Positions 14,221-57,330 of a stretch of DNA of 64,000 nt are shown in pieces; the stretch's first letter is position 1, and each line of letters begins with the position of its first letter. Below the pieces are notes generated by a model. It did not search any database. It had not been told where the DNA came from and saw nothing but the letters and a program-made list of their open reading frames with translations. The stretch is from contig NC_091985.1 in the NCBI RefSeq assembly GCF_044704955.1, forward strand, positions 215,326,001-215,390,000, in the 5' to 3' direction. The DNA is from Pristiophorus japonicus. Taxonomy: Eukaryota. Both the position numbers and the translations under genes were made by a program.

Positions 14221-14760
14221 CTTTCCTCCTTATGAGAATATGCTTGGTTTGTACCCGGTGTCAAATTTTGTTTAATAATGCTCCCGTGAAGCACGTTGGG
14301 ACGTTTAAGATACTGTATAAATACAAGTTGTTGTTGTCTGAACTGACAATACATTGCGCAGAAGTAAAATATAGTATTTTTAGTCCTAAATATTAAATAT
14401 TTTGTTCCACAGAAGCATGGGACGTGTATGTTTTTATTCATGAATTTAAAAAGTCTATATTAAAATCTGAGCCGGTGGGTTGTGAGCCCAAGAGCCTTGT
14501 GTCCAATAAGGACAATAAATGCCCCCAGCCTCCCCTGGCCCAGATGGTCGCCGGGGTGGCAGCTCCCGGGGGAGCTCCTCTGCTGAATAACTTTATCCCT
14601 TGCCGTCTGTTGCCATCCGACACCCTTTCTCCCCCAATCTCCCCGCTTTAAGCTCTCCCTGGCCCCAATAGGGGGCACATTTCTTACCGCTTAAGCACAA
14701 ATCCATGCTGCAAGGGCAGTTACCTGAGCACACTGCCCATCCCCCAAACATGCCTGTTCT

Positions 14761-15925
14761 TCACCTCCATCAGTGAGTGCGGGATCTCCACCTCCATCAG
14801 TGAGTGCGGGATCTCCACCTCCATCAGTGAGTGCGGGATCTCCACCTCCATCAGTGAGTGCAGGATCTCCACCTCCATCAGTGAGTGCAGGATCTCCACC
14901 TCCATCAGTGAGTGCGGGATCTCCACCTCCATCAGTGAGTGCGGGATCTCCACCTCCATCAGTGAGTGCGGGATCTCCACCTCCATCAGTGAGTGCGGGA
15001 TCTCCACCTCCATCAGTGAGTGCAGGATCTCCACCTCCATCAGTGAGTGCGGGATCTCCACCTCCATCAGTGAGTGCGGGATCTCCACCTCCATCAGTGA
15101 GTGCGGGATCTCCACCTCCATCAGTGAGTGCGGGATCTCCACCTCCATCAGTGAGTGCGGGATCTCCACCTCCATCAGTGAGTGCGGGATCTCCACCTCC
15201 ATCAGTGAGTGCGGGATCTCCACCTCCATCAGTGAGTGCAGGATCTCCACCTCCATCAGTGAGTGCAGGATCTCCACCTCCATCAGTGAGTGCGGGATCT
15301 CCACCTCCATCAGTGAGTGCGGGATCCCCACCTCCATCAGTGAGTGCGGGATCCCCACCTCCATCAGTGAGTGCAGGATCTCCACCTCCATCAGTGAGTG
15401 CAGGATCTCCACCTCCATCAGTGAGTGCGGGATCTCCACCTCCATCAGTGAGTGCGGGATCTCCACCTCCATCAGTGAGTGCGGGATCCCCACCTCCATC
15501 AGTGAGTGCGGGATCCCCACCTCCATCAGTGAGTGCGGGATCTCCACCTCCATCAGTGAGTGCGGGATCTCCACCTCCATCAGTGAGTGCAGGATCTCCA
15601 CCTCCATCAGTGAGTGCAGGATCTCCACCTCCATCAGTGAGTGCGGGATCTCCACCTCCATCAGTGAGTGCGGGATCTCCACCTCCATCAGTGAGTGCAG
15701 GATCTCCACCTCCATCAGTGAGTGCAGGATCCCCACCTCCATCAGTGAGTGCAGGATCCCCACCTCCATCAGTGAGTGCAGGATCCCCACCTCCATCAGT
15801 GAGTGCGGGATCACCACCTCCATCAGTGAGTGCAGGATCTCCACCTCCATCAGTGAGTGCGGGATCCCCACCTCCATCAGTGAGTGCGGGATCCCCACCT
15901 CCATCAGTGAGTGCAGGATCTCCAC
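14761..15925. repeat. 27-bp minisatellite CACCTCCATCAGTGAGTGCRGGATCYC, about 43 copies
   Basis: Directly visible near-perfect tandem array with two variable positions. Confidence 0.97.
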
Positions 15926-24605: not shown

Positions 24606-25571
24606 CATCTAGCAGCGTAATGTCGGCGAGTGGTGATTGATTGCCCTGGGAACCAACAGGAAGAGAGGTCAGAGGTCAGAGGCCGGAGGGCCCAGGGAGC
24701 AGCGTGTTCTGCAACCAATCGCGGTGCTTGAGGGGTGGATCCTGAGTCGGCCTGTCAGGTGAGTCAGTGAGAACCCCTGTTAAACAATTCATTTTTAAAA
24801 AGTTAAATCAAGATTTATTTTGTCAACCAAACAGTTTAACATTTGTCAGTATTTTGTTTTCCTGGAGTTCCTATTATAAGTTTCAGACACTTCATTGCCA
24901 TGTGGACCAAGTGTTTGAAGATCATTCAATTCCCTCTCTACATGTCACTGTTAGTTAAAGGGACAGAGATTGATTTCCTCTCATTGTACATCTGTCATCG
25001 TTAAAGTAACATCCTTCCTGTTAGTGAGTCACAGTCTGCACTGGGGGAGACGGCTGGTGGCTTCAGCTTTTAAAATTCTCATCCTCTTGTTCAAATCCCT
25101 CCAAGGCCTCGCCCCTCCCTATCTCTGTAACCTCCTCCAGCCCACCAACCCTCTTAATAAGGAGGAACCATTTTCAGTGTCAGAAGGGTCGGTAACCAGA
25201 GGGACAGATTTAAGGTGTTTGGCCAATGAACCAAATGCTACATGAGGGGACAAATTAAGCAGTGAGACGTTATGACCTGGAACGCACTGCCTGAAAGGGT
25301 GGTGGAAGCAGATTCACCAGTAACTTCTTTAGGTGACTCTTTGTGCTCATTGAGGTGATGGAGGTTAGTGCCGGGCAACAGGACATTTTATAAGAACAGA
25401 AGAATTAGGAGCAGGAGGAGGCCATACCACCCCTCGAGCCTGCTACGCCATTCAATAGGATCATAGCTTATCTTAAACTTTTTATCAGTCAGAGCATCTC
25501 ATGTCACCCTCTGGGATTCCTGGGGCAGGGACAGTCTAATTTACATACAGAATATAGCTCCATCGACACTT

Positions 25572-31307: not shown

Positions 31308-34143
31308 AGTGCAAATAGATGTTAACAAATATGATGTGATTGGGATTACGGAGATGTGGCTCCAGGATTATCAGGGCTGGGAACTCAACATCCAGGGGTA
31401 GTCAACATTCAGGAAAGATAGAATAAAAGGAAAAGGAGGTGGGGTAGCATTGCTGGCTAAGGAGGAAATTAAGGCAATAGTTCAGAAGGACATTAGCTTG
31501 GATGATGTGGAATCTATATGGGTAGAGCTGCAGAATACCAAAGGGCAAAAAACGTTAGTGGGAGTTGTGTACAGACCTCCAAACAGTAGTAGTGATGTTT
31601 GGGAGGGCATCAAACATGAAATTAGGGGTGCGTGCAATAAAGGTGCAGCAGTTATAATGGGTGACTTTAATATGCACATAGATTGGGTTAACCAAACTGG
31701 AAGCAATACGGTGGAGGAGGATTTCCTGGAGTGCATAAGGGATGGATTTTTAGACCAATATGTCGAGGAACCAACTAGGGGGGAGGCCATCTTAGACTGG
31801 GTGTTGTGTAATGAGAGAGGATTAATTAGCAATCTCGTGTGAGACCCCTTGGGGAAGAGTGACCATAATATGGTGGAATTCTGCATTAGGATGGAGAATG
31901 AAACAGTTAATTCAGAGACCATGGTCCAGAACTTAAAGAAGGGTAACTTTGAAGGTATGAGGCGTGAATTGGCTAGGATAGATTGGCGAATGATACTGAA
32001 GGGGTTGACTGTGGATGGGCAATGGCAGACATTTAGAGACCGCATGGATGAACTACAACAATTGTACATTCCTGTCTGGCGTAAAAATAAAAAAGGGAAG
32101 GTGGCTCAACCGTGGCTATCAAGGGAAATCAGGGATAGTATTAAAGCCAAGGAAGTGGCATACAAATTGGCCAGAAATAGCAGCGAACCCGGGGACTGGG
32201 AGAAATTTAGAACTCAGCAGAGGAGGACAAAGGGTTTGATTAGGGCAGGGAAAATGGAGTACGAGAAGAAGCTTGCAGGGAACATTAAGACGGATTACAA
32301 AAGTTTCTATAGATATGTAAAGAGAAAAAGGTTAGTAAAGACAAACGTAGGTCCCCTGCAGTCAGAATCAGGGGAAGTCATAACGGGGAACAAAGAAATG
32401 GCGGACCAATTGAACAAGTACTTTGGTTCGGTATTCACTGAGGAGGACACAAACAACCTTCCGGATATAAAAGGGGTCGGAGGGTCTAGAAAGGAGGAGG
32501 AACTGAGGGAAATCCTTATTAGTCAGGAAATTGTTTGGGGAAATTGATGGGATTGAAGACCGATAAATCCCCAGGGTCTGATGGCCTGCATCCCAGAGTA
32601 CTTAAGGAGGTGGCCTTGGAAATAGTGGATGCATTGACAGTCATTTTCCAACATTCCATTGACTCTGGATCAGTTCCTATGGAGTGGAGGGTAGCCAATG
32701 TAACCCCACTTTTTAAAAAAAGGAGGGAGAGAGATAACACGGAATTATAGACCAGTCAGCCTGACATCGGTAGTGGGTAAAATGATGGAATCAATTATTA
32801 AGGATGTCTTAGCAGTGCATTTGGAAAGAGGTGACATGATAGGTCCAAGTCAGCATGGATTTGTGAAAGAGAAATCATGCTTGACAAATCTTCTGGAATT
32901 TTTTGAGGATGTTTCCAGTAGAGTGGACAAGGGAGAACCAGTTGATGTGGTATATTTGGACTTTCAGAAGGTTTTCGACAAGGTCCCACACAAGAGATTA
33001 ATGTGCAAAGTTAAAGCATGGGATTGGGGGTAGTGTGCTGACATGGATTGAGAACTGGTTGTCAGACAGGAAGCAAAGAGTACGAGTAAATGGGGACTTT
33101 TCAGAATGGCAGGCAGTGACTAGTGGGGTACCGCAAGGTTCTGTGCTGGGGCCCCAGCTGTTACACTGTACATTAATGATTTAGACGATGGGATTAAATG
33201 TAGTATCTCCAAATTTGCGGATGACACTAAGTTGGGTGGCAGTGTGAGCTGCGAGGAGGATGCTATGAGGCTGCAGAGCGACTTGGATAGGTTAGGTGAG
33301 TGGGCAAATGCATGGCAGATGAAGTATAATGTGGATAACTGTGAGGTTATCCACTTTGGTGGTAAAAACAGAGAGACAGACTATTATCTGAATGGTGACA
33401 GATTAGGAAAAGGGGAGGTGCAACGAGACCTGGGTGTCATGGTACATCAGTCATTGAAGGTTGGCATGCAGGTACAGCAGGCGGTTAAGAAAGCAAATAG
33501 CATGTTGGCCTTCATAGCGAGGGGATTTGAGTACAGGGGCAGGGAGGTGTTGCTACAGTTGTACAGGGCCTTGGTGAGGCCACACCTGGAGTATTGTGTA
33601 CAGTTGTGGTCTCCTAACTTGAGGAAGGACATTCTTGCTATTGAGGGAGTGCAGCGAAGGTTCACCAGACTGATTCCCGGGATGGCGGGACTGACCCATC
33701 AAGAAAGACTGGATCAACTGGGCTTGTATTCACTGGAGTTCAGAAGAATGAGAGGGGACTTCATAGAAACGTTTAAAATTCTGACGGGGTTAGACAGGTT
33801 AGATGCAGGAAGAATGTTCCCAATGTTGGGGAAGTCCAGAACCAGGGGACACAGTCTAAGGATAAGGGGTAAGCCATTTAGGACCGAGATGAGGAGGAAT
33901 TTCTTCACCCAGAGAGTGGTGAACCTGTGGAATTCTCTACCACAGAAAGTTGTTGAGGCCAATTCACTAAATATATTCAAAAAGGAGTTAGATGAAGTCC
34001 TTACTACTAGGGGAATCAAGAGGTATGGTGAGAAAGAAGGAATGGGGTACTGAAGTTGCATGTTCAGCCATGAACTCATTGAATGGCGGTGCAGGCTAGA
34101 AGGGCCGAATGGCCTACTCCTGCACCTATTTTCTATGTTTCTA
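31308..34143 (+). mobile_element. 5'-truncated young CR1 with frameshifts
   Basis: ORF2 fragments 31450-34053, nearly identical to the 9.6-12.4 kb copy, and a CR1 tail. Confidence 0.95.
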
Positions 34144-34144
34144 A

Positions 34145-35124
34145 GAGACTGTCAATTACATAATGAATCTCACACTCACACACATCACTAGTCTAACAGA
34201 TACATAATCAATCTCACACTCTCAAACAGTAACAGAAACTGACAGTTACAGAATGAACCCCATACCCACAAACAGTGCCAGGGACTGAGAGACACAGAAT
34301 GGACCCCACACCCACAAACAGTGCTAGAGACTGAGACACACATAATGATACATACACTCGGGTACAGTGAATGACAGATTGCGATTGAATCACAATCACA
34401 TATGGTAACAGACTGACTGACTGGCAGATCTAGGTTAAAATCCACACACACCTATTGGAAAGTGACTGGTGCAGAGTAAAATGGATATTCACATAACTTT
34501 TATTCTGAATCCTTCAGCTTTTGTTAACACATCCTGTAAACCAATAGATACAGAATAAAATGTACACTTGCATCCCAGAGTCAGACAGCTATAAAGTAAA
34601 ACACACACTCACATACCAGAGACTGGAAGATATGACTAATATCCACACTCCGGTACAAGAAACTGGCAGGTACTGATTAAAATACACAATCACATCCTGG
34701 AAACTAACGGTTGGAGTGTAACAACAAGACAAATACCAGAAATTGACAGGTAAAGATTAAAACCAAACTCACATTCCAAAAACTGACAGATACAGAGTAA
34801 AGCCCACACTCTCACCATAGAGTGACACATACAGTCTATGACACACTCACACATAAGAAAATGACAGCTACAGAGTCAAACCCACATTCACATCCCAGAG
34901 AGTGACAGCTACAGAGCAAAATCAACAGCCACATAAAAGATACTGATCGATGCAGAGTCAAACAAACACACGCTCACGTACCACAACCTAACAGGTACAG
35001 ATTAAAACAGACTCACATATCAGAAACTGACAGATACAGCACAAAAGCAGCACTATCACAGCAGATACTGACAGGTACAGATTAAAACCCCTATTCATAT
35101 ACTAGAAACTAACAGGTACAAAAT
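34145..35124. repeat. Diverged 41-bp tandem array
   Basis: Same consensus as the 28.6 kb array. Confidence 0.8.
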
Positions 35125-37556
35125 AGGATTTCCTGGAATGCATAAGGGATGGTTTTCTAGACCAATATGTCGAGGAACCAACTAGGGGGGAGGCCATCTT
35201 AGACTGGGTGTTGTGTAATGAGAGAGGATTAATTAGCAATCTCATTGTGCGAGGCCCCTTGGGGAAGAGTGACCATAATATGGTGGAATTCTGCATTAGG
35301 ATGGAGAATGAAACAGTTAATTCAGAGACCATGGTCCAGAACTTAAAGAAGGGTAACTTTGAAGGTATGAGGCATGAATTGGCTAAGATAGATTGGCTAA
35401 TGATACTTAAGGGGTTGACTGTGGATGGGCAATGGCAGACATTTAGAGAACGCATGGATGAATTACAACAATTGTACATTCCTGTCTGGCGTAAAAATAA
35501 AAAAGGGAAGGTGGCTCAACCGTGGCTATCTAGGGAAATCAGGGATAGTATTAAAGCCAAGGAAGTGGCATACAAATTGGCCAGAAATAGCAGTGAACCT
35601 GGGGACTGGGAGAAATTTAGAACTCAGCAGAGGAGGACAAAGGGTTTGATTAGGGTAGGGAAAATGGAGTACGAGAAGAAGCTTGCAGGGAACATTAAGG
35701 CGGATTGCAAAAGTTTCTATAGGTATGTAAAGAGAAAGAGGTTAGTAAAGACAAACGTAGGTCCCCTGCAGTCAGAATCAGGGGAAGTCATAACGGGGAA
35801 CAAAGAAATGGCAGACCAATTGAACAAGTACTTTGGTTCAGTATTCACTAAGGAGGACACAAACAACCTTCCGGATATAAAAGTGGTCAGAGGGTCTATT
35901 AAGGAGGAGGAACTGAGGGAAATCTTTATTAGTCGGGAAATTGTGTTGGGGAAATTGATGGGATTGAGGGCCGATAAATCCCCAGGGCCTGATGGACTGC
36001 ATCCCAGAGTACTTAAGGAGGTGGCCTTGGAAATAGCGGACGCATTGACAGTCATTTTCCAACATTCCATTGACTCTGGATCAGTTCCTATCGAGTGGAG
36101 GGTAGCCAATGTAACCCCACTTTTTAAAAAAGGAGGGAGAGAGAAAGCAGGGAATTATAGACCGGTCAGCCTGACCTCAGTAGTGGGTAAAATGATGGAA
36201 TCAATTATTAAGGATGTCATAGCAGCGCATTTGGAAAATGGTGACATGATAGGTCCAAGTCAGCATGGATTTGTAAAAGGGAGATCATGCTTGACAAATC
36301 TTCTGGAATTTTTTGAGGATGTTTCCAATAAAGTGGACAAAGGAGTACCAGTTGATGTGGTATATTTGGACTTTCAGAAGGCTTTCGACAAGGTCCCACA
36401 CAGGAGATTAATGTGCAAAGTTAAAGCACATGGGATTGGGGGTAGTGTGCTGACGTGGATTGAGAACTGGTTGTCAGACAGGAAGCAAAGAGTAGGAGTA
36501 AATGGGTACTTTTCGGAATGGCAGGCAGTGACTAGTGGGGTACCGCAGGGTTCTGTGCTGGGGCCCCAGCTGTTTACATTGTACATTAATGATTTAGACG
36601 AGGGGATTAAATGTAGTATCTCCAAATTTGCGGATGACACTAAGTTGGGTGGCAGTGTGAGCTGCGAGGAGGATGCTATGAGGCTACAGAGTGACTTGGA
36701 TAGGTTAGGTGAGTGGGCAAATGCGTGGCAGATGAAGTATAATGTGGATAAATGTGAGGTTATCCACTTTGGTGGTAAAAACAGAGAGACAGACTATTAT
36801 CTGAATGGTGACAGATTAGGAAAAGGGAAGGTGCAACGAGACCTGGGTGTCATGGTACATCAGTCATTGAAGGTTGGCATGCAGGTACAGCAGGCGGTTA
36901 AGAAAGCAAATGGCATGTTGGCCTTCATAGCGAGGGGATTTGAGTACAGGGGCAGGGAGGTGTTGCTACAGTTGTACAGGGCCTTGGTGAGGCCACACCT
37001 GGAGTATTGTGTACAGTTTTGGTCTCCTAACTTGAGGAAGGACATACTTGCTGTTGAGGGAGTGCAGCGAAGATTCACCAGACTGATTCCCGGGATGGTG
37101 GGACTGACCTATCAAGAAAGACTGAATCAACTGGGCTTGTATTCACTGGAGTTCAGAAGAGTGAGAGGGGACCTCATAGAAACGTTTAAAATTCTGACGG
37201 GTTTGGACAGGTTGGATGCAGGAAGAATGTTCCCAATGTTGGGGAAGTCCAGAACCAGGGGTCACAGTCTAAGAATAAGGGGTAAGCCATTTAGGACCGA
37301 GATAAGGAGAAACTTCTTCACCCAGAGAGTGGTGAACCTGTGGAATTCTCTACCACAGGAAGTAGTTGAGGCCAATTCACTAAATATATTCAAAAGGGAG
37401 TTAGATGAAGTCCTTACTACTCGGGGGATCAAGGGGTATGGCGTGAAAGCAGGAAGTGGGTACTGAAGTTTCATGTTCAGCCATGAACTCGTTGAATGGC
37501 GATGCAGGCTAGAAGGGCTGAATGGCCTGCTCCTGCACCTATTTTCTATGTTTCTA
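35125..37556 (+). mobile_element. 5'-truncated young CR1 inserted in the 41-bp array
   Basis: Uninterrupted 752-aa ORF2 portion (35208-37466) with a complete RT domain; starts within the endonuclease domain. Confidence 0.95.
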
Positions 37557-38494
37557 AAACCCAACTCAGATTTGAGAAAATGAAAGTTACAGAGGACAAC
37601 CCAGACTCACGTCGCAGATATTAACATAGAGTAAAACTCTCACTTTCATCCCAGAGCCTGAATGATAGAAGAAAATCACACTTGCATACCAGAAACTGAC
37701 AGAGTAAAACTCTCACTCTCACATCAGAGACTAACAGATACAGAGTAAAATCTACACTTGCATCACACAGACAGACAACCATAGAGCAAATTCTGTACTC
37801 CCATATCCAAGACTAAGCAATACAGAGTAAAACTTACACTTACATAAAAGACAATGAGAGATACCCACTCTCACATATCATAAACTGACAGATACAGGCT
37901 AAAATCCACACTCGCATATCAGAAACTGGCAGGTTCTGATTAAAGCCCACGTTAACATATCAGAAAATGACAGGTACAGAATAAAACCCCACTCACATAC
38001 CAGAGTCTGAATGATAAAGTGTAAAATCACACTCGCACAGCAGAGAAGGACAGCTATAGAATAAAACCCACACTCACATACCGAAGACTGACTGATAGAG
38101 TAAAACGCACACTCACATCCCAGAGACTGAGAACTACAGAGTTTTACCTACATTCCTATACCGGAAACAGACAGAATCAGAAAGAATTAACACTCACATC
38201 CCAGAAACTGGCAGGTACAGAGGAAAACCCATGTTACAAATTCAGAAAATGACAAGTACAGAATAAATCCCCAATCACATACGAGAAACTGACAGGTGCA
38301 GGGTAATACCTGCATTGACATACCAGAGACCGACAGGTACATAGGAAAATCCACACTCGCATCCTGGAGACAGGCAAAAACAGAGTGGAACTCGCAGTCA
38401 TATTCCAGAAGCTGACATGGTGTATAATAAAACCCACTTTTGCCCACCAAAAACTGAAGAAAGAACAACACTCACGTACCAGATACTGACAGCT
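37557..38494. repeat. Diverged 41-bp tandem array, continuation
   Basis: Same consensus. Confidence 0.8.
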
Positions 38495-42173: not shown

Positions 42174-43107
42174 AACTCCATGCTGTCCTGAGAGAACAAA
42201 CCAAAAACACAATGGCTCTTTTAAGAGCCACCCACAACCTCTCTGAAAGACCTAAAGCGCATCACCCTTTAGACTCAATATTCTGTAATTATTTCCTGAA
42301 CAAGTGTGTTTGGGAACCTTTGCAGTTCCAGCTGTGGAGTTAGTTTTGAATTCTCATAAGCAGCTTCACTGTCTGGTTCGACGTTAGGACTGCTGTTGAA
42401 TTTCCCGCCATTCAAGCTACAAACACGATTCCTTGTCGCTCGTTCCCATTTACAGCGCCTGCCGAGGAATTAAGAGCTTGTTTAGGAAATGAGGCTCAGA
42501 TTTCAGTCACCTCATTCTCTCGTAAGCCCTTTACAAATTTATTTTTCAATTCCTGTTACGGTCAATCTGTTTATTAACTCGGGACTCCCTGCAATGTAAA
42601 AACCCAGAATGGGAGTTCGTACAGAGACCAGAACGGGAGCAGTGTGAACACTCTATCCCTCTTCCCTTTTCACATAAGGGCTCCCAGTTCTGGACTCACT
42701 CCCGCCTGTGCGGAAGATCAATCCATGATTTGTGATTCCCAACTTTTACACAGTTTGAGCTGGAATGTGTCCTGTTACAGAATCAGTGGGGATTGATTGC
42801 CGTCCGTTACAGACAGATTGACAGTGAACGCGAATTTAATTTTGATTGTAACAGCCTGGAATTAGTAAGGGAAATATGGAATAAAATAAAAGGAAGTAAA
42901 ACCTGTTTGTAAACCTTTGGCTAATGGTGCATTTATTAACATAATCCGCACTTTAAAAAATTATTGGCGGTGTTTTTGAAATTAAAAATAGTTCGAGGTG
43001 TGACTGTTGAGGACAGGAATTTCCGCCGTCGTTTCATTGGTGGTCTCAGCAGACAATGGGTAAGGCGAGAGATTAACATTCAGCGGCAATTTCAGTAAAG
43101 AATCATC

Positions 43108-43412
<305 letters not shown>

Positions 43413-43686
43413 ATAACGTGACCCTTTCTCCCAAACACAACACAAAGGCTCTTCTCAGAGCCACCCACCTCTTCACAGAGAGAGCAGTGACCTGGGGAAC
43501 GGGGGCGAGATCGTTGATTTACATTTTGTTCTGTATAGATATGTTTTTTGCCAAGATCTGTATTGTGGTGTTCGGTGTTTTAAATCAGCATATAAACGAT
43601 GGACAGAATGTCCTTTTAGTCTTCAAATCATAGACATTTACGGGACATTCCAGATGAAGGTAATACTGAAAAATCTAATGTAGTTA

Positions 43687-44948
43687 GAACATAAGAACAT
43701 AAAAACATAAGAAATAGGAGCAAATGTAGGCCATACGGCCCCTCGAGCCTGCTCCGCCATTTAATACGATCATGGACTCTGGTCTACTTTCCTGCCCCAT
43801 ATTCCCTTATTAAGAAACTGTCTGTTTCTGTCTTAATTTTATTCAATGTCCCAGCTCTCTGAGGCAGCGAATTCCACAGATTCACAATCCTCAGAGAAGA
43901 AATTTCTCCTCATCTCAGTTTTAAATGGGCGACCTCTTATTCTAAGATTAAGCCCTCTAGTTCTAGTTTCCCCTAGCAGTGGAAACATCCTCTCTGCATC
44001 CACCTTGTTAAGCCCCCTCATAATCTTATATGTTTCGATAAGATCACCTCTCATTCTTCTGAATTCCAATGAGTAGAAGCCCAACCTACTCTACCTTTCC
44101 TCAAGTCAACCCCCTCATTCTGGAATCAACCTTGTGAAACTTCTCTGAACTGCCTCCAAAGCAAGTATATCCTTTTTGTAAATATAGAAACCAAAACTGC
44201 ATGAAGTATTCCAGGTGTGGCCTCACCAATACCCTGTACAACTGTAGCAAGACTTCCCTGCTTTTATACTCCATCCCCTTTGCAATAAAAGCCAGATTCC
44301 ATTGGCCTTCCTGATCACTTGCTGTACCTGCATACTAACCTTTTGTGTTTCATGCACAAGTACCCCCAGGTCCCGCTGCACTGCAGCACTTTGCAATCTT
44401 TCACCATTGAAATAATAACTTGCACTTGCACAAATCAAAGAGCATGACCTCACACTTTCCAATATTATACTCCATCTGCCAAATCCTTGCTCACTCACTT
44501 AGCCTGTCTATGTCCTTTTGCAGAATTTGTGTCCTCCTCACCCATTGCTTTTCCTCCTATCTTTGTATCGTCAGCAAACTTGGCTGCGTTACTCTCGGTC
44601 CCTTCTTCCAAGTCATTAATATAGATCGTAAATAGTTGGGGTCCTAGCACTGATTCCTGTGGCATCCCCTTGGTTACTGATTGCCAACCCGGGAATGAAC
44701 CATTTATCCCCACTCTCTGGTTTCTGTTTGTTAGCCAATCCTCTATCCATGCTAATATATTACCCCCAACCCCGTGAACTTTTATCTTGTGCAGTCAGTA
44801 ACCTTTTATGTGGCACCTTGTCAAATGCGTTCTGGAAGTCCAAATACACCACATCCACTACTTCCCCATTATCCACCCTGTGCGTGACATCCTCAAAGAA
44901 TTCCAGCAAATTTGTCAAACATGACTTCCCCTTCATAAATCCATACTG
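43687..44948 (-). mobile_element. 5'-truncated CR1 inserted in the H4-H2B spacer
   Basis: RT fragments 43839-44713 and a TTATGTTC-type tail. The flanks match the uninterrupted spacer at about 49017-49035. Confidence 0.9.
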
Positions 44949-45329
44949 TTACATCCATGTTACAGCAGTGACAGATAAGAAAGGTGTTGAATTAAACGAT
45001 GGGAGGAAGGCAGCATCAGGGCAGAAGGACAGTGAGGGTCCCTTGCCCTCATAGAAGGACTCCCAAGTCCTGATCAGAAGTGACCCTCAGGAAATCTCGG
45101 TTACAAACCGGTCAATGTCTCGAACATGTAGAAATGTAGATCGACAAACACAGCTGTTCAGATTATTGAATGTATATATAGAAAAAAACGTGAATGAACC
45201 TTCCTCATAAGTCCGGCCGTCATTAACCATTTTTGCCTGAGAGCAGAATAGAAACAAAAACGGAATATAAATCGGGAGGGGATGTCATTGATGACTTAAT
45301 TTAAGAATTTGAGATTGTGGCAAACAATA

Positions 45330-45480
45330 AATCTGATTGGATGTTTAAAGATACCAATCAGAGAGATACAGAACAATGGAAATTGACAACGCAGCCAATG
45401 AACCAATCACAGTCATTGCCTTCACCCATCCCTCATTAGCATAAGGTTGTGGGCGGAGTGTGGGGCTACCTACATAATGC
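45330..45480 (+). promoter_or_regulatory. H2B-type promoter upstream of the interrupted H2B
   Basis: CCAAT boxes, octamer-like CTCATTAGCATA, GGGCGG and a weakened TATA (TACATAA). Paralogous to 49285-49435. Confidence 0.75.
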
Positions 45481-45547
45481 GAGCCCGGAGCAAAATTTCT
45501 TTCATATCTACCCGACTGAACAAGACGATGCCTGAGGAAAAGAAACC

Positions 45548-45900
45548 CGCTTCTCGGCCTTTTGGCTAAGATCATGCGTAACTGACCTGACAGGGGAGTA
45601 ACCACCATAACCCCAAGGTGGTTCTCCCTGGATCAGGAAGGTATATGCTTGCTTTTTTGGAAATAGGAGGTGGGTGGGGTGGTTTGACCCATCCACCTCC
45701 ACGGAGGTGTGTGGGGGACCTGACCTATACACCTCCATGGCACGAACCTGGTATTGCAGTACTTCCAGGAACGGTGCAGTGGCTCTAGGCCTTTTGGCTA
45801 AGAGCATTGGCGCAGAGTGATCCTTGAATGGGCCCAAGGTGACCTCTGGCGTTTGTGATTTGACAAAGAATTGGAACGATTGGCTACGAATTTTAAAAAA
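45548..45900 (+). mobile_element. U2/U1 snRNA-derived chimeric retroposon, unit 1
   Basis: U2 5' end CGCTTCTCGGCCTTTTGGCTAAGATCA (45548-45574). U1-like ACTGACCTGACAGGGGAG...AAGGTGGTTCTCCC (45581-45628). U2 3' stem-loop IV ACCTGGTATTGCAGTACTTCCAGGAACGGTGCA (45746-45778). A-tail. Confidence 0.85.
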
Positions 45901-45909
45901 AAGAAACCA

Positions 45910-46221
45910 GCTTCTCGGTTTTTTGGCCAAGATCATGCGTAACTGACCTGACAGGGGAATAACCATGACCAGAAAGTGGTTCTCCCTGGATCAGGAAGGT
46001 GGTTCTCCTATGCTTTTTGGAAATAGGAGGTGGGTGTGGGGCTTGACCCATCCACCTCCATGGCACGAACCTGATATTGCAGTACTTCCAGGAACGGTGC
46101 TTGGGCTCGAGGCCTTTTGGCTAAGAGCATTGGCGCAGAGTGATCCTTGATGGGTGCAAGGTGACCTCTGGCGTTTATGATCTCACAAAGAATTGGAAAG
46201 ATTGGCAACGAATAATAAAAA
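45910..46221 (+). mobile_element. U2/U1 snRNA-derived chimeric retroposon, unit 2
   Basis: Same order of modules as unit 1 but diverged: U1-like 45942-45986, U2 SL-IV 46069-46100, A-rich tail. Confidence 0.85.
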
Positions 46222-47551
46222 AAGAAACCAGCTTCGAAAAAGGGTGCCAAAAAAGTCATCAAAAAAACATCACCAAAGGGCGGCAAGAAGCGCCGAAATT
46301 CGAGGAAGGAGAGTTATGCTATCTACATCTACAAAGTGATGAAGCAGGTTCACCCCGACACCGGCATCTCCTCCAAGGCCATGGGCATCATGAACTCGTT
46401 TGTGAATAATATTTTCGAGCGCATTGCGGGTGAGGCTTCCCGCCTGGCCCATTACAACAAGCGTCGCGCCATCAGTTCCCGGGAGATCCAGACCGCCGTG
46501 CGCCTGCTGCTGCCCGGGGAGCTGACCAAGCACGCCGTGTCGGAAGGGTCAAAGGCGGTGACCAAGTACACCAGCTCCAAGTAAAACTCCACGCTGTCCT
46601 GACAGAACAAACCCCAAACACAACGGCTCTTTTAAGAGCCACCCACAACATAATTGAAAGAGCTGCACAAACATCACCCTTTAGACTGAATTTACTGTAA
46701 TTATTTCCTGAACAAGTGTGTGTGAGAACCTTTGTAGTTCCAGCTGTAGATTTAGTTTTGAATTCTCATAAGTAGCTTCACTGACCGGCTTGACCTTGGC
46801 GTCACTGGAATTTCCTGTAGTGAGTAAACTACAAACACGGTCCCTGGTCGCTTTCCCTTTGTTCTCAGACCCGTTCATTCACAGCGCCTGCCGACGAATT
46901 TATTTTGGGGGGCGGGGAAACTCCGATTTCAGTCACATTCTCAATCAAGTCCTTTTCACGAGTTTTTTTTATTCCGTTGCGCTCAGTCCGTTTATTAACC
47001 CGAGACTCCCCGCAGTGTAACAACCCAGAATGGGAGTTCTTAGAGATTGGAACAGGGGCAGTTTGAACACCCTGTCCCTCTTCTCTTTTTACAGAAGGAC
47101 TCTCAGTTCTGGTCTCACTCCCACAGCAGCTCCTGTGAAAACAAGTTCACTTTTACGAAGATGGAGCTGGAATGTGTCCCGTTACAGAATCAGTGGGGAC
47201 TGAGTCCCGCCCGTTACAGACAGTTTGAAGCTGAAGCCGAATTTAATCCTAATTGTTACAGGCTGGAATTTGCAAGGGAAATATGGAATAAGACAAAAGG
47301 AAACAAAAAGTGTTTTGAAGTATTTGGCTAATGGTGAAGTTACTAACTCAATCCGCAATTTTCACAATTATTGGCGGGATTTTTGAATTTAAAAAATCGT
47401 TAGGTTCTGGCTGTTGGGAAACCAGTAATTTCCGCCCTCCTTTCATTGGTGGACTAGACAGGCTGTGATTGGTCATCGGAAACGGCCAATGAAATCCACG
47501 ACAGAGTGACCAATCACAAGTTCGCTCCCTGCATCCCTCCAGAAGGGATAA

Positions 47552-47970
<419 letters not shown>

Positions 47971-48402
47971 AGCGGACAAGATTTAAACTAATAACCCAAA
48001 GGCTCTTTTCAGAGCCACTCACAGTATCTGTGAAACGGCTGCTTACTGTATTAATGGAGACCTTGAGTTCAGGTACCGATAAATTGGTCTATTTCAGACC
48101 TGTATGCGGGAGTTTTCAGTTCCTGGTATTTCCATTATGGTTTTCTGCTCACACAAACTGTTCTAGTTAGCAGCTAATAATTAAACTACAGTTGTCAGAG
48201 ACTCAAAACTTGTATAAATACCGCAACCGGTTCCCTAAATATTTAATCTTATCAATGAAAGCTGTATGAAGAAAGTCGGCGGTTATTAAAAGGGCCTAGT
48301 TTAATTCTGGTCTGGTTTGAGAGTTTGAATGCTGGTTCTGTTCCCGGGAGCTCCAGTCGTTCCGGGCTGTGTATTTTTCTCCTAAGCCGGTCAGTTTAGG
48401 CC

Positions 48403-48492
48403 TACACTGAGCAGCCAAGCGCAAGACGGTCACTGCCATGGATGTGGTGTGCACTCTGAAACGGCAGGGCCGCACTTTCTATGGATTCAACG
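48403..48492 (+). pseudogene. Histone H4 3' fragment
   Basis: [25 protein letters not shown]; degraded stem-loop at about 48522-48537. Confidence 0.88.
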
Positions 48493-48664
48493 GGACTCTC
48501 TTCCCCCAAGCACAAAGCAAAGGCTCTTCTAAGTCCCACCCACCGCCTCACGGGGGGAGGGAGGGAGATATAGTTCATTTACATTTTGTTCGGTATCGAT
48601 AGATATTTTAAATCAGCATATGCACGATGGACGGAATATCCTTTTAGTTTCAGAATTATAGATA

Positions 48665-48960
48665 TTTATCATCGAAGCTTACAACACGGAATGAGGCCAC
48701 TTCGGCCCATCGTGTCCGTGCCGGCCAACAAAAGGCTATCCAGCCGAATCCCACTTTCCAGCTCTAGGTCCGTAACCCTGCAGGTTACGGCACTTCAAGT
48801 GCACATCCAAGTAGTTTTAAATGTGGTGAGGGTTTCTGCCTCTACCACCCTTTCAGGCAGTGAGTTCCAGAGCGCAGCCACCCTCTGCGTGAAGATATTT
48901 CCCCTCTAAATCTTCTACCAATTACTTTAAATTTATGCCTCCTGTGCTAAGGGAAATAGG
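48665..48960 (-). mobile_element. Short CR1 3' fragment
   Basis: Similar to the CR1 3' end at 12590-12900. Confidence 0.7.
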
Positions 48961-49284
48961 CCCTTTACGGCACAGAAGGTACGGCATATTCCAGGTGAAG
49001 GTAACACTGAAACAACTAATGTAGTTACAGCAGTGAAAGATAAGAAAGGTGTTGAATTAAACGGTGGGAGGAAGGCAGCATCAGGGAGGAAGGACATTGA
49101 GGGTCTTTTGACCTCATAGACTTCCAAGTCCTGACCAGAAGTGGCCCTCAGGCAATCTCGGTTACAAACCGGTCAATGTCTGTCAAACATGTAGAAATCT
49201 AGATCGATAAAGAACAGAGTATAAGTCGGGAGGGGATGTAACTGATGACCTAATTGAAGAATTTGAGATTGTGGCGAGCAGTAA

Positions 49285-49435
49285 ATCTGATTGGTCTCTT
49301 TAAACATCCAATCAGAGAATTACAGAACAATAGAAATTGACAACGCAGTGAGTGAACCAATCACAATTGTTGCCTTCACCCATCCCTCATTAGCATAGGG
49401 CTGTGGGCGGAGTGTGGGGCTGCCTATATAATGCG
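49285..49435 (+). promoter_or_regulatory. H2B promoter
   Basis: CCAAT boxes, octamer-like CTCATTAGCATA, GGGCGG and TATATAA. Confidence 0.8.
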
Positions 49436-49483
49436 AGCTCCGAGCTAAGTTTACGTCATGTCTGGGTTGGATTGAACAAGACG

Positions 49484-49861
49484 ATGCCTGAAGAGAAGAA
49501 ATCAGTTACTGCCAAGAAAGGCGCCAAGAAAGTGATCAAGAAAACACCACCAAAGGGCGGTAAGAAGCGCAGGAAGTCGAGGAAGGAGAGTTACTCCATC
49601 TACATCTACAAAGTGATGAAGCAGGTTCACCCCGACACCGGCATCTCCTCCAAGGCCATGGGCATCATGAACTCTTTTGTGAACGATATTTTCGAGCGCA
49701 TCGCAGGTGAGGCTTCCCGCCTGGCCCATTACAACAAGCGCCGCACCATCAGCTCCCGGGAGATCCAGACCGCCGTGCGTCTGCTGCTACCCGGGGAGCT
49801 GGCCAAGCACGCCGTATCGGAAGGGACAAAGGCGGTGACCAAGTACACTAGCTCCAAGTAA
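49484..49861 (+). CDS. H2B: Histone H2B (125 aa), replication-dependent
   Basis: [16 protein letters not shown]...[26 protein letters not shown]...TKYTSSK; intronless. Confidence 0.97.
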
Positions 49862-49901
49862 AACTCCACGTTGTCCTCACACAACAATCCCTAAACACAA
49901 C

Positions 49902-49917
49902 GGCTCTTTTAAGAGCC
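49902..49917 (+). terminator. Histone 3' stem-loop (H2B)
   Basis: GGCTCTTTTAAGAGCC-ACCCA followed by a purine-rich GAAAGAG downstream element. Confidence 0.95.
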
Positions 49918-50810
49918 ACCCACAACGTCTCTGAAAGAGCTGCACAAACACATCACCCTTTAAACTCAATTTACTGTATTTATTTCCTGAGCAAGTGTGT
50001 TTGACAGCATTTAAAATTCCAGCTGTAGATTTAGATTTGAATTATCAGATAAGCGGTTTTACTGTCCGGTTCAACCTTAGCTTCTCTGATGAATTTTCCT
50101 CCCAGTAAACTGCACACACTGTCCCTGGTCGCTTGCCAATGAATTATGATCTTGTTTTAGGAGGTGAAACTCAGACTTTAGTCACCTCATTCTCTCTCAA
50201 ACCCTTTACAATATAAAAAAAATTCTAGTTCGGGTCAACCCGCTTATTAATCCGAGATTCCGAGTGCAACAGCCCAGACTGGGAGTTCTTACAGAGACCA
50301 GAACAGGGAGTTTGAACCCTCTGTCCCTCTTTTCACAGAAGAACTCCCAGTTCTGGTCTCACTGCCGCCTGTGCGGATGATCGATCCATGATCTGTGATT
50401 CCCAAATTGTACAAAGATTGTGCTGGAATGTGTCCCGTTACAGAACGTTTGAAACTGAACGCGAATTTAATCCTGATTGTAACATCCTGGAATTTGGAAG
50501 GCAATAAAGAATACGGCAAAAGGAAATAAAAAGTGTTTGGAAATCTTTGGCTAATGTTGAATTTATTAACATAATCCGCATTGTAAAAATTATTGGCGGG
50601 GTTTTTGAAATTGAAGATTCGTTGGCAGTCGAACAGTAATTTTCGCCCTGTTTACATTGGCGGGCTAAACAGACGGTGATTGGTCAGCGGAAAAGACCAA
50701 TGAAATCCACTTCAGAGCGACCAATCACAAGTTCGCTCCCTGCATCCCTCCAGAATGTATAAGAAGGGCAGATGTGGGAGGAGTTTCTCATTCTTTGTCT
50801 GAACTTGTGA

Positions 50811-51206
<396 letters not shown>

Positions 51207-51236
51207 AGCGGACAAGATTTAATCTAATAACCCAAA

Positions 51237-51252
51237 GGCTCTTTTCAGAGCC
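51237..51252 (+). terminator. Histone 3' stem-loop (H2A)
   Basis: GGCTCTTTTCAGAGCC-ACCCA. Confidence 0.95.
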
Positions 51253-51344
51253 ACCCACAGTATCTGTGAAGGGGATGCTTACTGTCTTAATGGAGTCAGA
51301 GCCCTTTAATTCATGTACCGATCGATGGGCCTGTTTTAGACCTG

Positions 51345-51612
51345 GAAACATAGAAAATAGGTGCAGGAGTAGGCCATTCGGCCCTTCGAGCCTGCACCAC
51401 CATTCAATAAGATCATGGCTGATTATTCCCTCAGTACCCCTTTCCTGCTTTCTCTCCATATCCCTTTAGCCATAAGGGCCACATCTAACTCCCTCTTGAA
51501 TATATGTAACGAACTGGCATCAACAACTCTGCGGTAGGGAATTCCACAGGTTAACAACTCTGAGTGAATAAGTTTCTCCTCATCTCAGTCCTAAATGGCT
51601 TTCCCCTTATCC
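51345..51612 (-). mobile_element. Short CR1 3' end
   Basis: CR1 tail; absent at the paralogous site at about 48100. Confidence 0.88.
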
Positions 51613-52256
51613 GTACGCGGGAGTTTTCAGTTCCCGGTCTCTGCATTACGGTTCTCTGCTCACACATACACTTCCCGTTAACAGCGAATAATTGAACTAC
51701 AGTTGTCACTCAACAATTGTATAAATACTGCCACCGGTTCTTTAAATATTCTTTAATCTGTCTGAAAACGAGAGAGTCGGCAATGATGAATTAATGTAGT
51801 AATAAAAGGGCCTAGTTTAATTCTGGTCTGGTTTGAGATAGTTTGAATGCTGATTTTGTTCTCGGGAGCTCTGGCCGTTCCCGGGCTCTGTATTTCTCTG
51901 CTAAGCCGGTCAGTTTAGACCGCACTGGAGCAGCGAGCGATGCACACATACAGGACCCGAGTCCATTGCAGTGCTTCCCAGATCTACCTGCCCCCATTCT
52001 CCGGCAACACCGAATGGGGAAATCTGTGCTCTGCCCCGGGGAACTCGAGGTCAGAGCGACGCAAAGCCGATGTCAGTTTCTGAAAATATTAAGACTCACC
52101 AGTTAATCGTCAATAATTCCCATGTGAACCGAGTTGGTATATGAAGACACGATCAGTAATCAGTCTCACACCCTCTGCCCGTCCCTACAATGGGTTAATG
52201 AACAACACGAAGCTCTGGTTACAGTAGATCGCAGCTCTTTCCTTTGCTGATTTGGT

Positions 52257-52272
52257 GGCTCTGAAAAGAGCC
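52257..52272 (-). terminator. Histone 3' stem-loop (H3)
   Basis: GGCTCTTTTCAGAGCC on the - strand. Confidence 0.93.
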
Positions 52273-52317
52273 GTTGTTGCACTTGGTGCTGAAGCTTGGA
52301 GCCGGGGCAGGGGGAGT

Positions 52318-52737
<420 letters not shown>

Positions 52738-53691
52738 TCAACACAATCTGGGACACACGGATTGTTAATGCGGGGACTCCTCTTTGCTTCCATTTAAAGT
52801 GTGTGAGGGTCCGCATGGAGCTGTGATTGGCTGCAACCCGACCGCCAATCAAGTTTGAACCAAGCACCGAGTGAAAATGAAGGGCGAGGAATACTGGGCC
52901 CTAATTGGCTGAACTGAAACTGACATTTGGTCAATTTCAAAAAGCCCGCCAATTTCAGAATATCAACCAACAGAGATTAAATAAAATCTAATTTCCCGCC
53001 AGCAATTTAAGAATCCCGCTCTTTATAACGGCGATTGTGCCCCATTATAAGTCACCAATCCCATTCTGTCACATTCCGGTTTGAATTATGTTCCATTCCC
53101 TGATCCGTCTGTACCGGGCGGGAATAAATCCGCGGTCACTGCTTCCTGTAAACATAAAGTCCCGCATCGATCCCGCCAGTGCCGTCCCACTTAACCGATT
53201 CTCACACAGAAACCTCACATGACAGGAATTATCTGTGAGGGGAGACTGTAATGTGTAAAGAGGACTGTGTATCCTGCCCGGTAATTGTGACTGTCAGCCG
53301 GAGTTTCTGATCTCTCATATTTACAATAGTTGTAAAATATTTAATAATTCCCATATTCCTAGAGACTACACTCCAAAAGTACTTCATTGGTCTTGTTCAT
53401 TGGATGTGGTCCTTGCGGCTGAGGGGGGGGCGGGGGTTGGGAGTGTGGAGGGGGCGTGGGGAGGTGATCAGCTGTGATCTTGTTGAATGGCGGTGCAGGC
53501 TCGAAGGGCCGAATGGCCTACTCCTGCACCTATTTTCTATTTTTCTGTGTCTTGAGACGTTCGGTGGTCGTGAAAGGCGCAATATAAATCCAAACCTTTC
53601 TTTCCATTAATTAAACAGCCGAAACCATTTCCCAACCAAACTGTCCGCGCTCCGATCCCCAGGTCGCTGCTCTCTCTGTGTGCCGGTGGGT

Positions 53692-53707
53692 GGCTCTTAG
53701 AAGAGCC
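53692..53707 (-). terminator. Histone 3' stem-loop (H4)
   Basis: GGCTCTTCTAAGAGCC-ACCCA on the - strand. Confidence 0.93.
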
Positions 53708-53742
53708 TTTGTGTTGTGTTTGGGGGAAAAGGGTCGAGTTAT

Positions 53743-54066
<324 letters not shown>

Positions 54067-54804
54067 TCACTTAAACTGCCGCTGAATGAGAAGTGAACTG
54101 CTGCCGGCTCCTTTTTATAGAGCCGGAGCCGACCTGACTGAGAAAGCGCAGAGTGAGAGAGGCGGGAAGGGGAGGAGACATAGTCAAGATTGACAGACAG
54201 AGCAGAGAGCGGCCTCTGATCTTCCAGCTTTCTGCAGCCGCTAATTTCAAACCGTTTTCCGACAATAGAACCGAAACAGACTCGGAATTTATATTCAAAG
54301 CTTCCAGGAACCTGAAGCTTTTAAATAAAGTCCCGCTACAATTAACAATCGCGAATATTCCCGCCTATATACAGCCCCTTCCCTGTCAATCTCAGACCTT
54401 GTTCCATCTCCCCACACTTCCTCTCACAGACGGGTTCAACAGTTTACAAACACCTTATTCCAGCTGATTTGGAGAATGTGGTGTTTGGGGTTTGAGTTGT
54501 GAGGCGGGGTATCTCCGCCAGTGTCACCGTCTCACAGACTCTCCCCCTGAATCTGTGAAATGACAATGACCAGGAACTGAGACTGGAGCTGAACACATCC
54601 CCAGTTACAGTGAGGCCCGGGCCGGACATCCCATTCTCTGTGTGTTTTATTGCAGACACTGGGGGAGGGGTGGGTGCAGCCAATGTCAGCGAGTCACCAG
54701 GGATCCTGGCTTCATGTTCAATGATTTCTGTCTGAAATCTGAGCCCGGCCCCGGGACAGGGATCATTTGATTCGGGGATCAACTCTTTTCTGAGAGGCGT
54801 GGGT

Positions 54805-54820
54805 GGCTCTGAGAAGAGCC
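54805..54820 (-). terminator. Histone 3' stem-loop (H1)
   Basis: GGCTCTTCTCAGAGCC-ACCCA on the - strand. Confidence 0.93.
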
Positions 54821-54855
54821 TTTGGGTTCAGATGTTTACAAGTTGCACTTTTTAT

Positions 54856-55554
54856 TTACTTTTTGAGCGCTGGTTTCTTGGGTTTTGTTGATTTGGCCTT
54901 GGCCCTCGGTTTTCCCACCTTTTTGGCCGCCTTCACCTTTGCGCCCGAGGCCTTCTTGGGGCTCTTGGGCTTCGCCGCTGCCGCCTTCTTCCCAGCCGCC
55001 GCTTTCGCTGACTTTTTTACTGTTAGCGCCTTCTTGGTGCTCGTTTTCTTGGCCGGAGATTTCTTGGCTGCTGGTTTCTTGGCCGGAGATTTCTTGGCTG
55101 CTGGTTTCTTGGCCGGAGATTTCTTGGCTGCTGGTTTCTTGGCTGGAGATTTCTTGGCTGCTGGTTTCTTGGCTGGAGAGTTCTTGGCTGCTGGTTTCTT
55201 CACCTTCCTTCCCACTTTCCCCTGGTTTTCCTTCTTAGCGACTTTGAAGGAGCCCGAGGCGCCCGTGCCCTTGGTCTGCAGCAGGAAGCCATTTGTCACA
55301 TTCCTCTTGATACTGAACCTGATCTGGGACCCGCGCTTCTCCACATCCACGCCTTTGGCCGCCAGAGCCTTCTTTATCGCGGCCAGAGACATCCCCTTGC
55401 GATCGCTGCCATCGGTCACAACCTTGAGGATCTGTTCGCCCAACGTGGGGCCGGCTGGCTTGGAGCGGGGAGCTGCCTTCTTCTTCTTGCGGGGGGCCTT
55501 GGCTTGAGCGGCGGCGGCAGAAGGAGCTGTTTCGGCGGCTGAAGTGTCAGTCAT
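54856..55554 (-). CDS. H1: Linker histone H1 (232 aa)
   Basis: [11 protein letters not shown]..., a globular domain ([13 protein letters not shown]...[13 protein letters not shown]) and a K/A/P-rich tail; AC box AAACACA and GC box upstream. Confidence 0.95.
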
Positions 55555-56717
55555 GTCGGCGACTCTGTGGAAAATCTCTCTGACAGTCAGAGCTCGGTCA
55601 GAAATGAAACGACGGGAGGCGGCGGCACAGAGCAACTTAAAGGCAGCGAGCGGACGGGGCGAGACATCCTGCTGTCAGCTCCCCGCCCCTCCAGCCTCTC
55701 TGTGTTTCTCTCTCCTCATTAACTGTCCGATTCCAATTCAACCCGGGCCCTCCAGATTTCCAGACTGGCCTCTTTCTGTCCCGAAGACCGGGATGTTTGT
55801 TATCGAGAAAGCTTCCTCCGAATTAATGGCAGCATTGCTGCACTGATCGCGCTCACTCACCCGATCGCGGACATTTTCTCTGTTTTTCGATTGAAATTTG
55901 AAATCACATCAAACTTGACGTTTAATTCCCACTTTAGACCTGAGCAGGGCAGCAGGGCGATCCTGTGACAGGAAAATCTTTGAATTTTACACAAGCGGGA
56001 CTCTGGAATCCGGCGATGACACAAACAAAGTGACATTCGTCTCACCGGCCCGCCCCTTTAACACACTCTCGCTCACACAATGTTCACATCTGCACATTCA
56101 CAGCACAAACTGTCCCAGATTTACAGCTCCCAGCACAGGGTTACCTCTCCGCTCGGCCTGTGCTGCCGATTCTCGGGGTTAGTTGTAGTTTCCTAGCTCA
56201 GTAAGTGTTAAACACTCTGAGGCCGGCGTTCCTCAGAGTGTCTGTTCCCCAGATTCAGGGGCAGGAGCCAATCACAGCAGAGGCTGGCTTAACCCATATA
56301 TGCTGTTAAGTTATTACATTGTTCGCACGCAGAAATATGTTTGATTAACGTGAAAATAGAAATTATGAGTTCACCGCCCCTCCACCCTCTCTTTGTCTCT
56401 CTCTCTCTCTCTCCTCCGAAAATGAGGGACATATAACAGTAACTGGTATCCTATCCATCCCATACTCACCACCCAGAGATGGCTATCAGAGGGAGCGACA
56501 GAGAGACAGACACAGAATCAGTCTTAAACTCCCTAACTGTGTCTCAATATTACTCTCAATAATAGTATCACACATTCATGTATAGCACCACCGAAAGAGA
56601 GAGAAAGAGACAGACACATTATCAGTCTTACACTTGGTATCAGTGTTTCCATATTACGCTCAGTAACAGTGCCACACCGTCATGTATAGCACCAGAGAGA
56701 GAAACAGAAACAGTATC

Positions 56718-57330
56718 ATAGAAACATAGAAAATAGGTGCAGGAGTAGGCCATTCGGCCCTTCAAGTTTGCACCACCATTCAATATGATCATGGCTGATC
56801 ATGCAACTTCAGTACCCCATTCCTGCTTTCTCTCCATACCCCTTGATCCCTTTCGCCGTAAGGGCCATATCTAACTCCCTTTTGAATATATCTAACGAAC
56901 TGGCCTCAACAAATTTCTGTGGTAGAAAATTCCACAGGCTCACAATTCTCTGAGTGAAGAAGTTTCTTCTCATCTCGGTCCTAAATGGCTTACCCCTTAT
57001 TCTTAAACCGTGACCCCCGGTTCTGGACATCCCCACCATCGGGAACATTCTTCCTGCATCTAACCTGTGCAATCCCGTCAGAATGTTATATGTTTCTATG
57101 AGATCCCCTCTCATTCTTCTAAATTCCAGTGAATATAAACCTAGTCTATCCAGTCTTTCTTCATATGACAGTCCTGCCATCCTGGAATCAATCTGGTGAA
57201 CCTTCGCTGCACTCCCTCAATAGCAAGAATGTCCTTCCTCAGATTAGGAGACCAAAACTGTACACAATATTCAAGGTGTGACCTCACCAAGGCCCTGTAC
57301 AACTGCAGTAAGACCTCCCTGCTCCTATAG
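56718..57330 (-). mobile_element. 5'-truncated CR1
   Basis: ORF2 C-terminus 56809-57180 and a tail. Confidence 0.9.

Follow-up and report, generated by a model that had tools for sequence, protein, structure and literature searches.

A mosaic U2-U1 snRNA-derived SINE family of Pristiophorus japonicus, stacked in a histone H2B gene and likely mobilised by a Keno-like Tx1 LINE

The genome of Pristiophorus japonicus contains a dispersed family of short elements assembled from pieces of U2 and U1 snRNA, which is almost certainly a retroposon family, and which is likely copied in trans by a Keno-like LINE of the Tx1 group. Two members of the family, 87% identical to each other, lie head to tail at positions 45548-46219 of the window (the whole 64,000-nt stretch analysed, contig NC_091985.1, positions 215,326,001 to 215,390,000), where they split a histone H2B gene at codons 4-9. 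All features of the two units and of the interrupted gene given with their positions below are on the + strand, and both N runs of the window are distant from the two units.

When aligned to the U1 and U2 genes of the Pristiophorus japonicus genome itself, each unit has the same succession of modules: U2 nt 1/3-35, U1 nt 3-57, a short linker, U2 nt ~97-186 (comprising an Sm-like site, stem-loop III and stem-loop IV), U2 nt 7-29, a tail of ~90 nt unrelated to U1 or U2, and an A-rich end. The preliminary description had proposed a U2-U1-U2 layout common to both units; its modules and junctions hold, but the true order is U2-U1-U2-U2-tail. The two units do share their junctions, as had been claimed, but they are not alike throughout: stem-loop III is present twice in unit 1, as a 36-nt tandem, and once in unit 2. 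Unit 1 (45548..45898) belongs to a double-stem-loop-III subfamily. It begins with the U2 nt 3-35 head (45548..45580), which carries stem-loop I and a truncated branch-point-pairing region, and continues with U1 nt 3-57 (45581..45637), in which an altered 5' splice-site-pairing stretch precedes stem-loop I with a changed loop. A U2-derived, Sm-site-like U run (45651..45660) is followed by the two remodelled U2 stem-loops III in tandem (45666..45736, with 13-bp helices), U2 stem-loop IV (45740..45777), the second U2 stem-loop I piece (U2 nt 7-29, 45782..45805) and the non-snRNA tail with its A-rich end (45809..45898), of which 45809-45850 form a hairpin homologous to the tail of a sister family, B. 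In unit 2 (45910..46219) the corresponding features are the U2 head (45910-45941), the U1 part (45942-45995), the Sm-like site (46012-46020), a single stem-loop III (46026-46059), stem-loop IV (46063-46100), the U2 piece (46105-46128) and the tail hairpin (46132-46172).

The module assignments are borne out by several kinds of comparison. The head of unit 1 is identical to host U2 over 27 nt (nt 3-29) and matches at 31 of 33 positions through nt 35, and the stem-loop IV that had been attributed to U2 matches the host gene at 31 of 33 positions over a 33-nt stretch. The U1 5' part with stem-loop I was likewise correctly recognised: U1 nt 3-57 matches at 45/55 positions in unit 1 and 46/54 in unit 2, and when either unit was shuffled locally 2000 times, the U1 match score was reached in 0 cases. 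Against Rfam, the two units score 53.7 and 56.4 bits with the U2 model (gathering threshold 46), while the U1 model stays far under its gathering threshold of 69.5, with 21.1 bits (E 0.37) in a whole-window scan and 18.4 bits (E 0.003) when an 86-nt stretch was scored by itself; the weak U1 score arises because just the first third of U1 is present. The Sm-like site, stem-loops III and IV, the second U2 stem-loop I hairpin, the tail hairpin and the A tail all stand where they had been placed, and the hairpins are predicted to fold as separate modules, with folding z values of -6.3 for unit 1 and -2.6 for a dispersed copy (L017). In the parent snRNAs, the U2 stretch pairs with the branch point and the U1 stretch with the 5' splice site. 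The U1 stretch carries a change here and is predicted to be base-paired inside the element RNA.

The history of the locus can be read from the histone gene. The 5' end of H2B, with its ATG at 45528, spans 45528..45553, and the frame opened there ends after 13 codons; the remaining coding region, severed from the ATG, resumes at 46220..46584, differs from an intact paralogue (L093) by 7 amino acids and is followed by a histone stem-loop at 46620-46665. H2B groups with proteins of teleosts and sawshark. Sixteen nucleotides of H2B are found in triplicate, ahead of, between and behind the units (45538-45553, overlapping the SINE head through a short shared match; 45899..45914; 46220..46235), and at 53 other places in the genome the site is present, exact and unoccupied, of which the 6 fetched are H2B genes, 4 with open frames. 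Empty sites in H2B paralogues together with the tripled stretch therefore identify the units as insertions with target-site duplications (TSDs). A satellite or local tandem duplication is ruled out because the units are members of different subfamilies, each with a TSD. They also differ in age: unit 1 is the younger, 0.9% from its nearest sampled relative, and unit 2 the older, at 4.6%.

The same H2B site is filled at 21 places, against the 53 exact empty sites and a chance expectation of ~0.0002 hits. Five lineages can be told apart among the filled sites (the 20 fetched and L001), each with a different 5' join and each nearest a different dispersed subfamily (99.0, 100, 100, 99.7 and 96.2% identity); to judge from the sequences, five subfamilies reached this site independently. 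At one paralogous H2B locus (L236) a third unit lies upstream, and what it duplicated is the 5' junction of unit 1 in its already altered form; the units of this locus were therefore stacked one after another, on the 5' side. The H2B site itself is a poor fit to the loose target consensus of the family, and re-use of sites may be favoured by short stretches that target and U2 head have in common where the 5' join is made, as at H2B.

The surrounding part of the window, 42209-55554, is a histone cluster with an open H2B (49484), H2A (50820), H4 (54054, minus strand) and H1 (55554, minus strand), and its 9 histone stem-loop matches exceed what the open genes explain. Elsewhere in the window there are 84-nt-period repeats typical of C2H2 zinc-finger genes (127-1862), a 27-nt minisatellite of 43 copies with 97% matches (14758-15925), and several copies on both strands of a LINE-like repeat (4612-5682, 10038-12473, 22549-24609, 31715-37559 and 56710-57280), within which an ORF at 56809-57180 presumably represents a CR1-type 3' end.

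The two units were earlier taken to represent a family rather than a one-off pseudogene, and this reading is confirmed: the copies are dispersed, poly(A)-tailed and TSD-flanked, with common junctions. The 25-nt U2-U1 junction has 2,265 exact matches genome-wide and a 21-nt tail motif 5,749; both counts are lower bounds, and reversed-pattern controls gave 0 for each. A DNA search of the 5.9-Gb genome returned 2,079 candidates, and the 40 that were scored are spread over many contigs. Closer study took in 89 loci out of the first 100 junction places listed, all of which lie on contig 1; 90 were fetched, and one was set aside as part of the same array. Units are 310-350 nt long plus the A tail; nearest-neighbour divergence among 106 full units (104 and the window's two) is mostly 0-2%, and several full copies are identical although they lie at unlinked places. 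TSDs, with a median of 14 nt, were recognised at 46 of 67 single-copy loci, compared with 8 of 326 controls in which the flanks had been swapped. Among 40 further tail-motif loci, chosen as being without a listed junction, 20 start at or beyond stem-loop III, a 5' truncation that suggests stalling of reverse transcription at the helix. Subfamilies differ chiefly in the loops and the U1 part, and have common diagnostic loop changes that are absent from the host U1 and U2 genes. One subfamily (L206, L235, L279, L283, L296 and L297) has a U2 head that extends to ~nt 38 and less of the U1 part, as if a fresh U2 head had been added.

Re-use of sites is common beyond H2B. Between 2 and 6 copies are carried by 21 of the 89 loci, mostly with a copy of the TSD between them, and when nothing but the tail motif is counted, 11 of 87 loci hold more than one copy, where 0.08 would be expected. 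Recurrent single sites in the sample include a Gypsy-type pol gene (5/89) and a Harbinger-type transposase (3/89 and 2/89). Different subfamilies have repeatedly hit single positions in the Gypsy-type pol gene (L087, L100, L106, L126, L145, L293 and L309), in the Harbinger-type transposase (L089, L116, L137, L245 and L255) and in a third common repeat (L074, L122, L131 and L289). The target consensus of the SINE holds only ~3 bits, far too weak to account for 21 multi-copy loci among 89, and another factor must therefore drive the re-use.

A candidate for the enzyme behind these insertions is a LINE of 5,778 nt that lies in a gap of a U2 gene array (L055, 6906-1129, minus strand), inside a U2 gene between nt 37 and 38, with U2 38-53 duplicated. 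Its ORF1 (581 aa) has ZCCHC3-type RNA-binding and CCHC domains, and its ORF2 is an open frame of 1,147 aa with apurinic-type endonuclease, reverse transcriptase and zinc-binding domains. The LINE is 39% identical over 98% to a pufferfish reverse transcriptase, Q76B34, which we take to be that of a Keno element, and the closest pieces to the LINE protein (81% and 71% identity over 6-9% of the length) are in predicted shark proteins. The LINE in L055 has Keno's U2 site, which the relevant parts of the Keno literature place 37 nt into U2 (PMC6136364, PMC4640811), as well as the published 3' flank and the combination of apurinic-type endonuclease with reverse transcriptase. The LINE differs from Keno in being leaky: there are 446 exact 3'-end motifs, and 0 of 30 sampled lead into an intact U2 gene at nt 38. 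Its copies are up to 97-98% like the intact one, with ages that overlap those of the SINE, and 12 of 23 copies with both ends visible have TSDs, with a median of 14 nt and a base profile similar to the SINE's. The 5' region of the L055 copy includes its own copy of U2 1-44 with the target site altered. An octamer motif lies 92 nt into the LINE and also ~205 nt upstream of host U1 genes; in the 400 nt that precede the U2 genes of the two types examined there is none. The U2 array that holds this LINE (L044-L056) has a period of ~765 nt, with long trinucleotide runs in the spacer. In units of a U2 array on contig 9 (L057-L059), the U2 gene has downstream of it a short LINE 3' end and then U2 38-191; this is an old insertion that was amplified along with the array.

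The sister family B has at least 345 exact copies (L018, L238-L260 and others), and consists of a near-full U2 with a small deletion, U2 7-35, a shorter hairpin tail homologous to that of the mosaic family (A), poly(A) and TSDs. It comprises older and younger forms, the older ending like one host U2 variant, and it adjoins some family A copies; at one base pair of the tail, A and B differ in both bases. Family B keeps the Keno target, and both the LINE and family A have inserted into it. Two pieces of family B that begin at nt 38 come after the LINE end in L057. Family A probably derives from B, with U1 3-57 replacing U2 36-96, an exchange that would also have taken the LINE's preferred target out of the SINE; a U1-headed precursor without the U2 head, as an intermediate between A and B, has 0 exact matches genome-wide.

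The LINE is the likely mobiliser because SINE and LINE use the same U2 base, have a loose target and TSD length in common, and stack together. U2 sequence from nt 38 onward follows 34 SINE tails, in 30 of which the A tail is joined directly at nt 37/38; the search looked to one side, so that joins beyond nt 38 would have escaped it, and some of the 34 are duplicates or belong to one array. All 30 targets that were fetched are B-type or U2-like retrocopies, with 0 promoter-bearing U2 genes, and 6 of these loci retain the upstream U2 head and a clear duplication (L162, L171, L180-L183). The six bases 5' of SINE sites agree with U2 nt 32-37 at 2.42 of 6 positions, against a background of 1.57 +/- 0.17 (0 of 5000 draws; n=40), and those 5' of LINE sites at 2.88 (4 of 5000 draws; n=8). 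Among 30 LINE 3' ends, 2 are followed directly by family A and 1 by family B, where ~0.002 would be expected, and mixed LINE/SINE arrays with shared duplications were found (L159/L204 and L206).

One could imagine the same SINE being moved by a different LINE of the L1/Tx1 type, with the U2-site insertions due to a related enzyme or representing minority events. Most SINE insertions do lie outside U2-like sequence, and A-tail priming and TSDs of 8-20 nt are general traits of L1/Tx1 elements, which speaks for such an enzyme. The SINE tail is also without homology to the Keno-like element: aligned with the LINE 3' end, it shows no match (22 being the best local score), and recognition by this LINE would therefore depend on the A tail alone. 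The partner suggested for the snRNA-derived SINEs of crocodilians, in the sections of PMC4494074 that treat it, is Tx1-Mar, a sister group of Keno. A different LINE is nevertheless unlikely in the face of the exact joins at nt 37/38 in 30 of 34 cases, the agreement in TSD length and base profile between the SINE and the LINE's own off-target copies, and the mixed arrays and overlapping ages of the two elements.

If the Keno-like LINE does copy the SINE, insertion can be pictured as follows. A Pol II transcript from a putative flanking promoter would end in the A tail; the ORF2 endonuclease would nick a site resembling that in U2 (approximately T-G-N-R-G-Y / A); and reverse transcription would start from the A tail, frequently stalling at the stem-loop III helix. 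The 5' join would often be made through a few bases common to target and U2 head. The site would persist at the 5' junction, so that later copies could stack head-to-tail, as would have happened twice here in H2B.

Several sources of the transcript were considered. No B box is present in the units, and the Pol III search gave one loose A-box-like match, in the tail; each unit has 3-4 runs of at least 4 T. A source copy behind a U2 promoter was sought among 9 full-length copies, selected as having four upstream bases that fit either host U2 flank (just two flank types being known), and was not found there, all 9 being without likeness to U1 or U2 upstream regions. The search for a histone-promoter-driven source was likewise negative, the H2B leader being absent in 248 dispersed loci. 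Three reverse CCAAT motifs are present in the tail (45815-45890 and 46127-46212), and those of an upstream copy could in principle help in transcribing the next copy of an array.

The 9 candidate copies also bear on the very unlikely reading that the family consists of a functional variant snRNA gene, encoding a chimeric U2/U1 RNA, and its many processed pseudogenes. Such a gene would fit the retention of the stems and the Sm-like site, the stem-loop IV loop that is unchanged in 88 of 96 parsed units, and the tail base pair changed on both sides between A and B, but not the altered or truncated state of both pre-mRNA-pairing motifs, nor the existence of several subfamilies that diverge from one another, in one of which the Sm site is altered. 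Stem variants in family A number 23/46 for shared variants against 50/52 for singletons, the shared ones being rarer in stems (P 0.06), and pairing is retained in 11/20 against 20/53, respectively (P 0.20). Independent chimeric retrocopies, made by template switching among U2, U1 and other RNAs without any self-propagating family, are largely refuted and scarcely credible, for although snRNA template switching is known and fresh U2 heads were gained more than once, one and the same 25-nt junction recurs 2,265 times, host-absent loop changes unite subfamilies, and full copies are identical at unlinked places.

A more speculative, and rather doubtful, proposal is that the SINE RNA is an snRNP mimic, in which the Sm site and stem-loop IV are kept for Sm and U2B''-type proteins and the pairing motifs are shed, and that the resulting particle takes the SINE and the Keno enzyme to Cajal and histone-locus bodies. 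In the parent snRNAs these features bind proteins. If true, the mimic would parallel, on the snRNP side, the way in which Alu uses SRP9/14, and would explain both the arrival of five subfamilies at one H2B site and the re-use of sites beyond what a 3-bit motif allows.

The snRNA-headed SINEs known from elsewhere are SINEU-1, -2 and -3 of crocodilians, none having been found beyond that group according to the sections of Kojima 2015 (PMC4494074) that describe them, on which the following comparison rests. SINEU-2 consists of a 5' U1 and a 3' U2 part, and SINEU-3 of an internally deleted U2 with a short tail; Tx1-Mar is the likely partner, and transcription was left open (PMC4494074). The class as such, U1/U2 mosaics, mobilisation by a Tx1 element and tandem insertion had thus already been described. 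The family reported here resembles SINEU in being a non-coding U1/U2 mosaic of <500 nt, dispersed in many copies with a poly(A) tail and TSDs; in its internal T runs and lack of a Pol III promoter; in repeated 5' snRNA additions and tandem copies with a TSD between; in its preference for other repeats as sites; in a Tx1 partner with its own U2-like head; and in a target common to SINE and Tx1-clade LINE, which in the present case is deduced from sequence alone. It differs in that the order U2-U1-U2-U2-tail fits none of SINEU-1, -2 and -3, as set apart by their text descriptions. The partner here is apparently Keno itself, in an intact copy, rather than Tx1-Mar. The recurrent sites are H2B codons 4-9, U2-derived copies, and Harbinger- and Gypsy-type elements, among which no Mariner target appears dominant; the crocodilian preference is for Mariner-N4. 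The young SINEU-2 of crocodile has 1,058 copies against at least 5,749 here, mostly within a few percent of each other. Ordinary snRNA retrocopies and snRNA-LINE chimeras (PMC4494074, same sections) likewise combine snRNA sequence, an A tail or LINE piece, and TSDs, but they are independent events rather than a lineage with common junctions and subfamilies.

The suggestion in the preliminary description that this is an independent mosaic snRNA SINE family is supported, and the family probably originated independently of crocodilian SINEU; with text descriptions standing for the crocodilian consensus sequences, we infer independence because the U1 stem matches host U1 and the older form of family B ends like a host U2 variant. 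A literature search, with Repbase, Dfam and subscription journals outside its scope, found no snRNA-derived SINE in cartilaginous fishes. In the parts of them drawn on here, four papers citing Kojima 2015 (PMC5381603, PMC5786205, PMC7245038 and PMC4758252) add no further lineage, and PMC6136364, PMC4640811 and PMC4494074 describe no SINE partner of Keno itself.

For annotation, the passing of the Rfam U2 cut-off by copies of the family means that U2 gene counts will be inflated. For the host, with 21 filled against 53 exact empty H2B sites, the family is a recurrent mutagen of histone genes. A second independent origin, if true, would indicate a repeatable route, in which the presence of a U2-targeting LINE leads to the capture of U2 RNA and its derivatives. 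The crocodilian SINEU copies, as characterised in the corresponding sections of PMC4494074, are mostly old, without an intact partner or known promoter. In Pristiophorus japonicus a young and abundant family and an open-frame LINE occur in one genome, and therefore the enzyme and the promoterless transcription of SINEU-type elements become testable.
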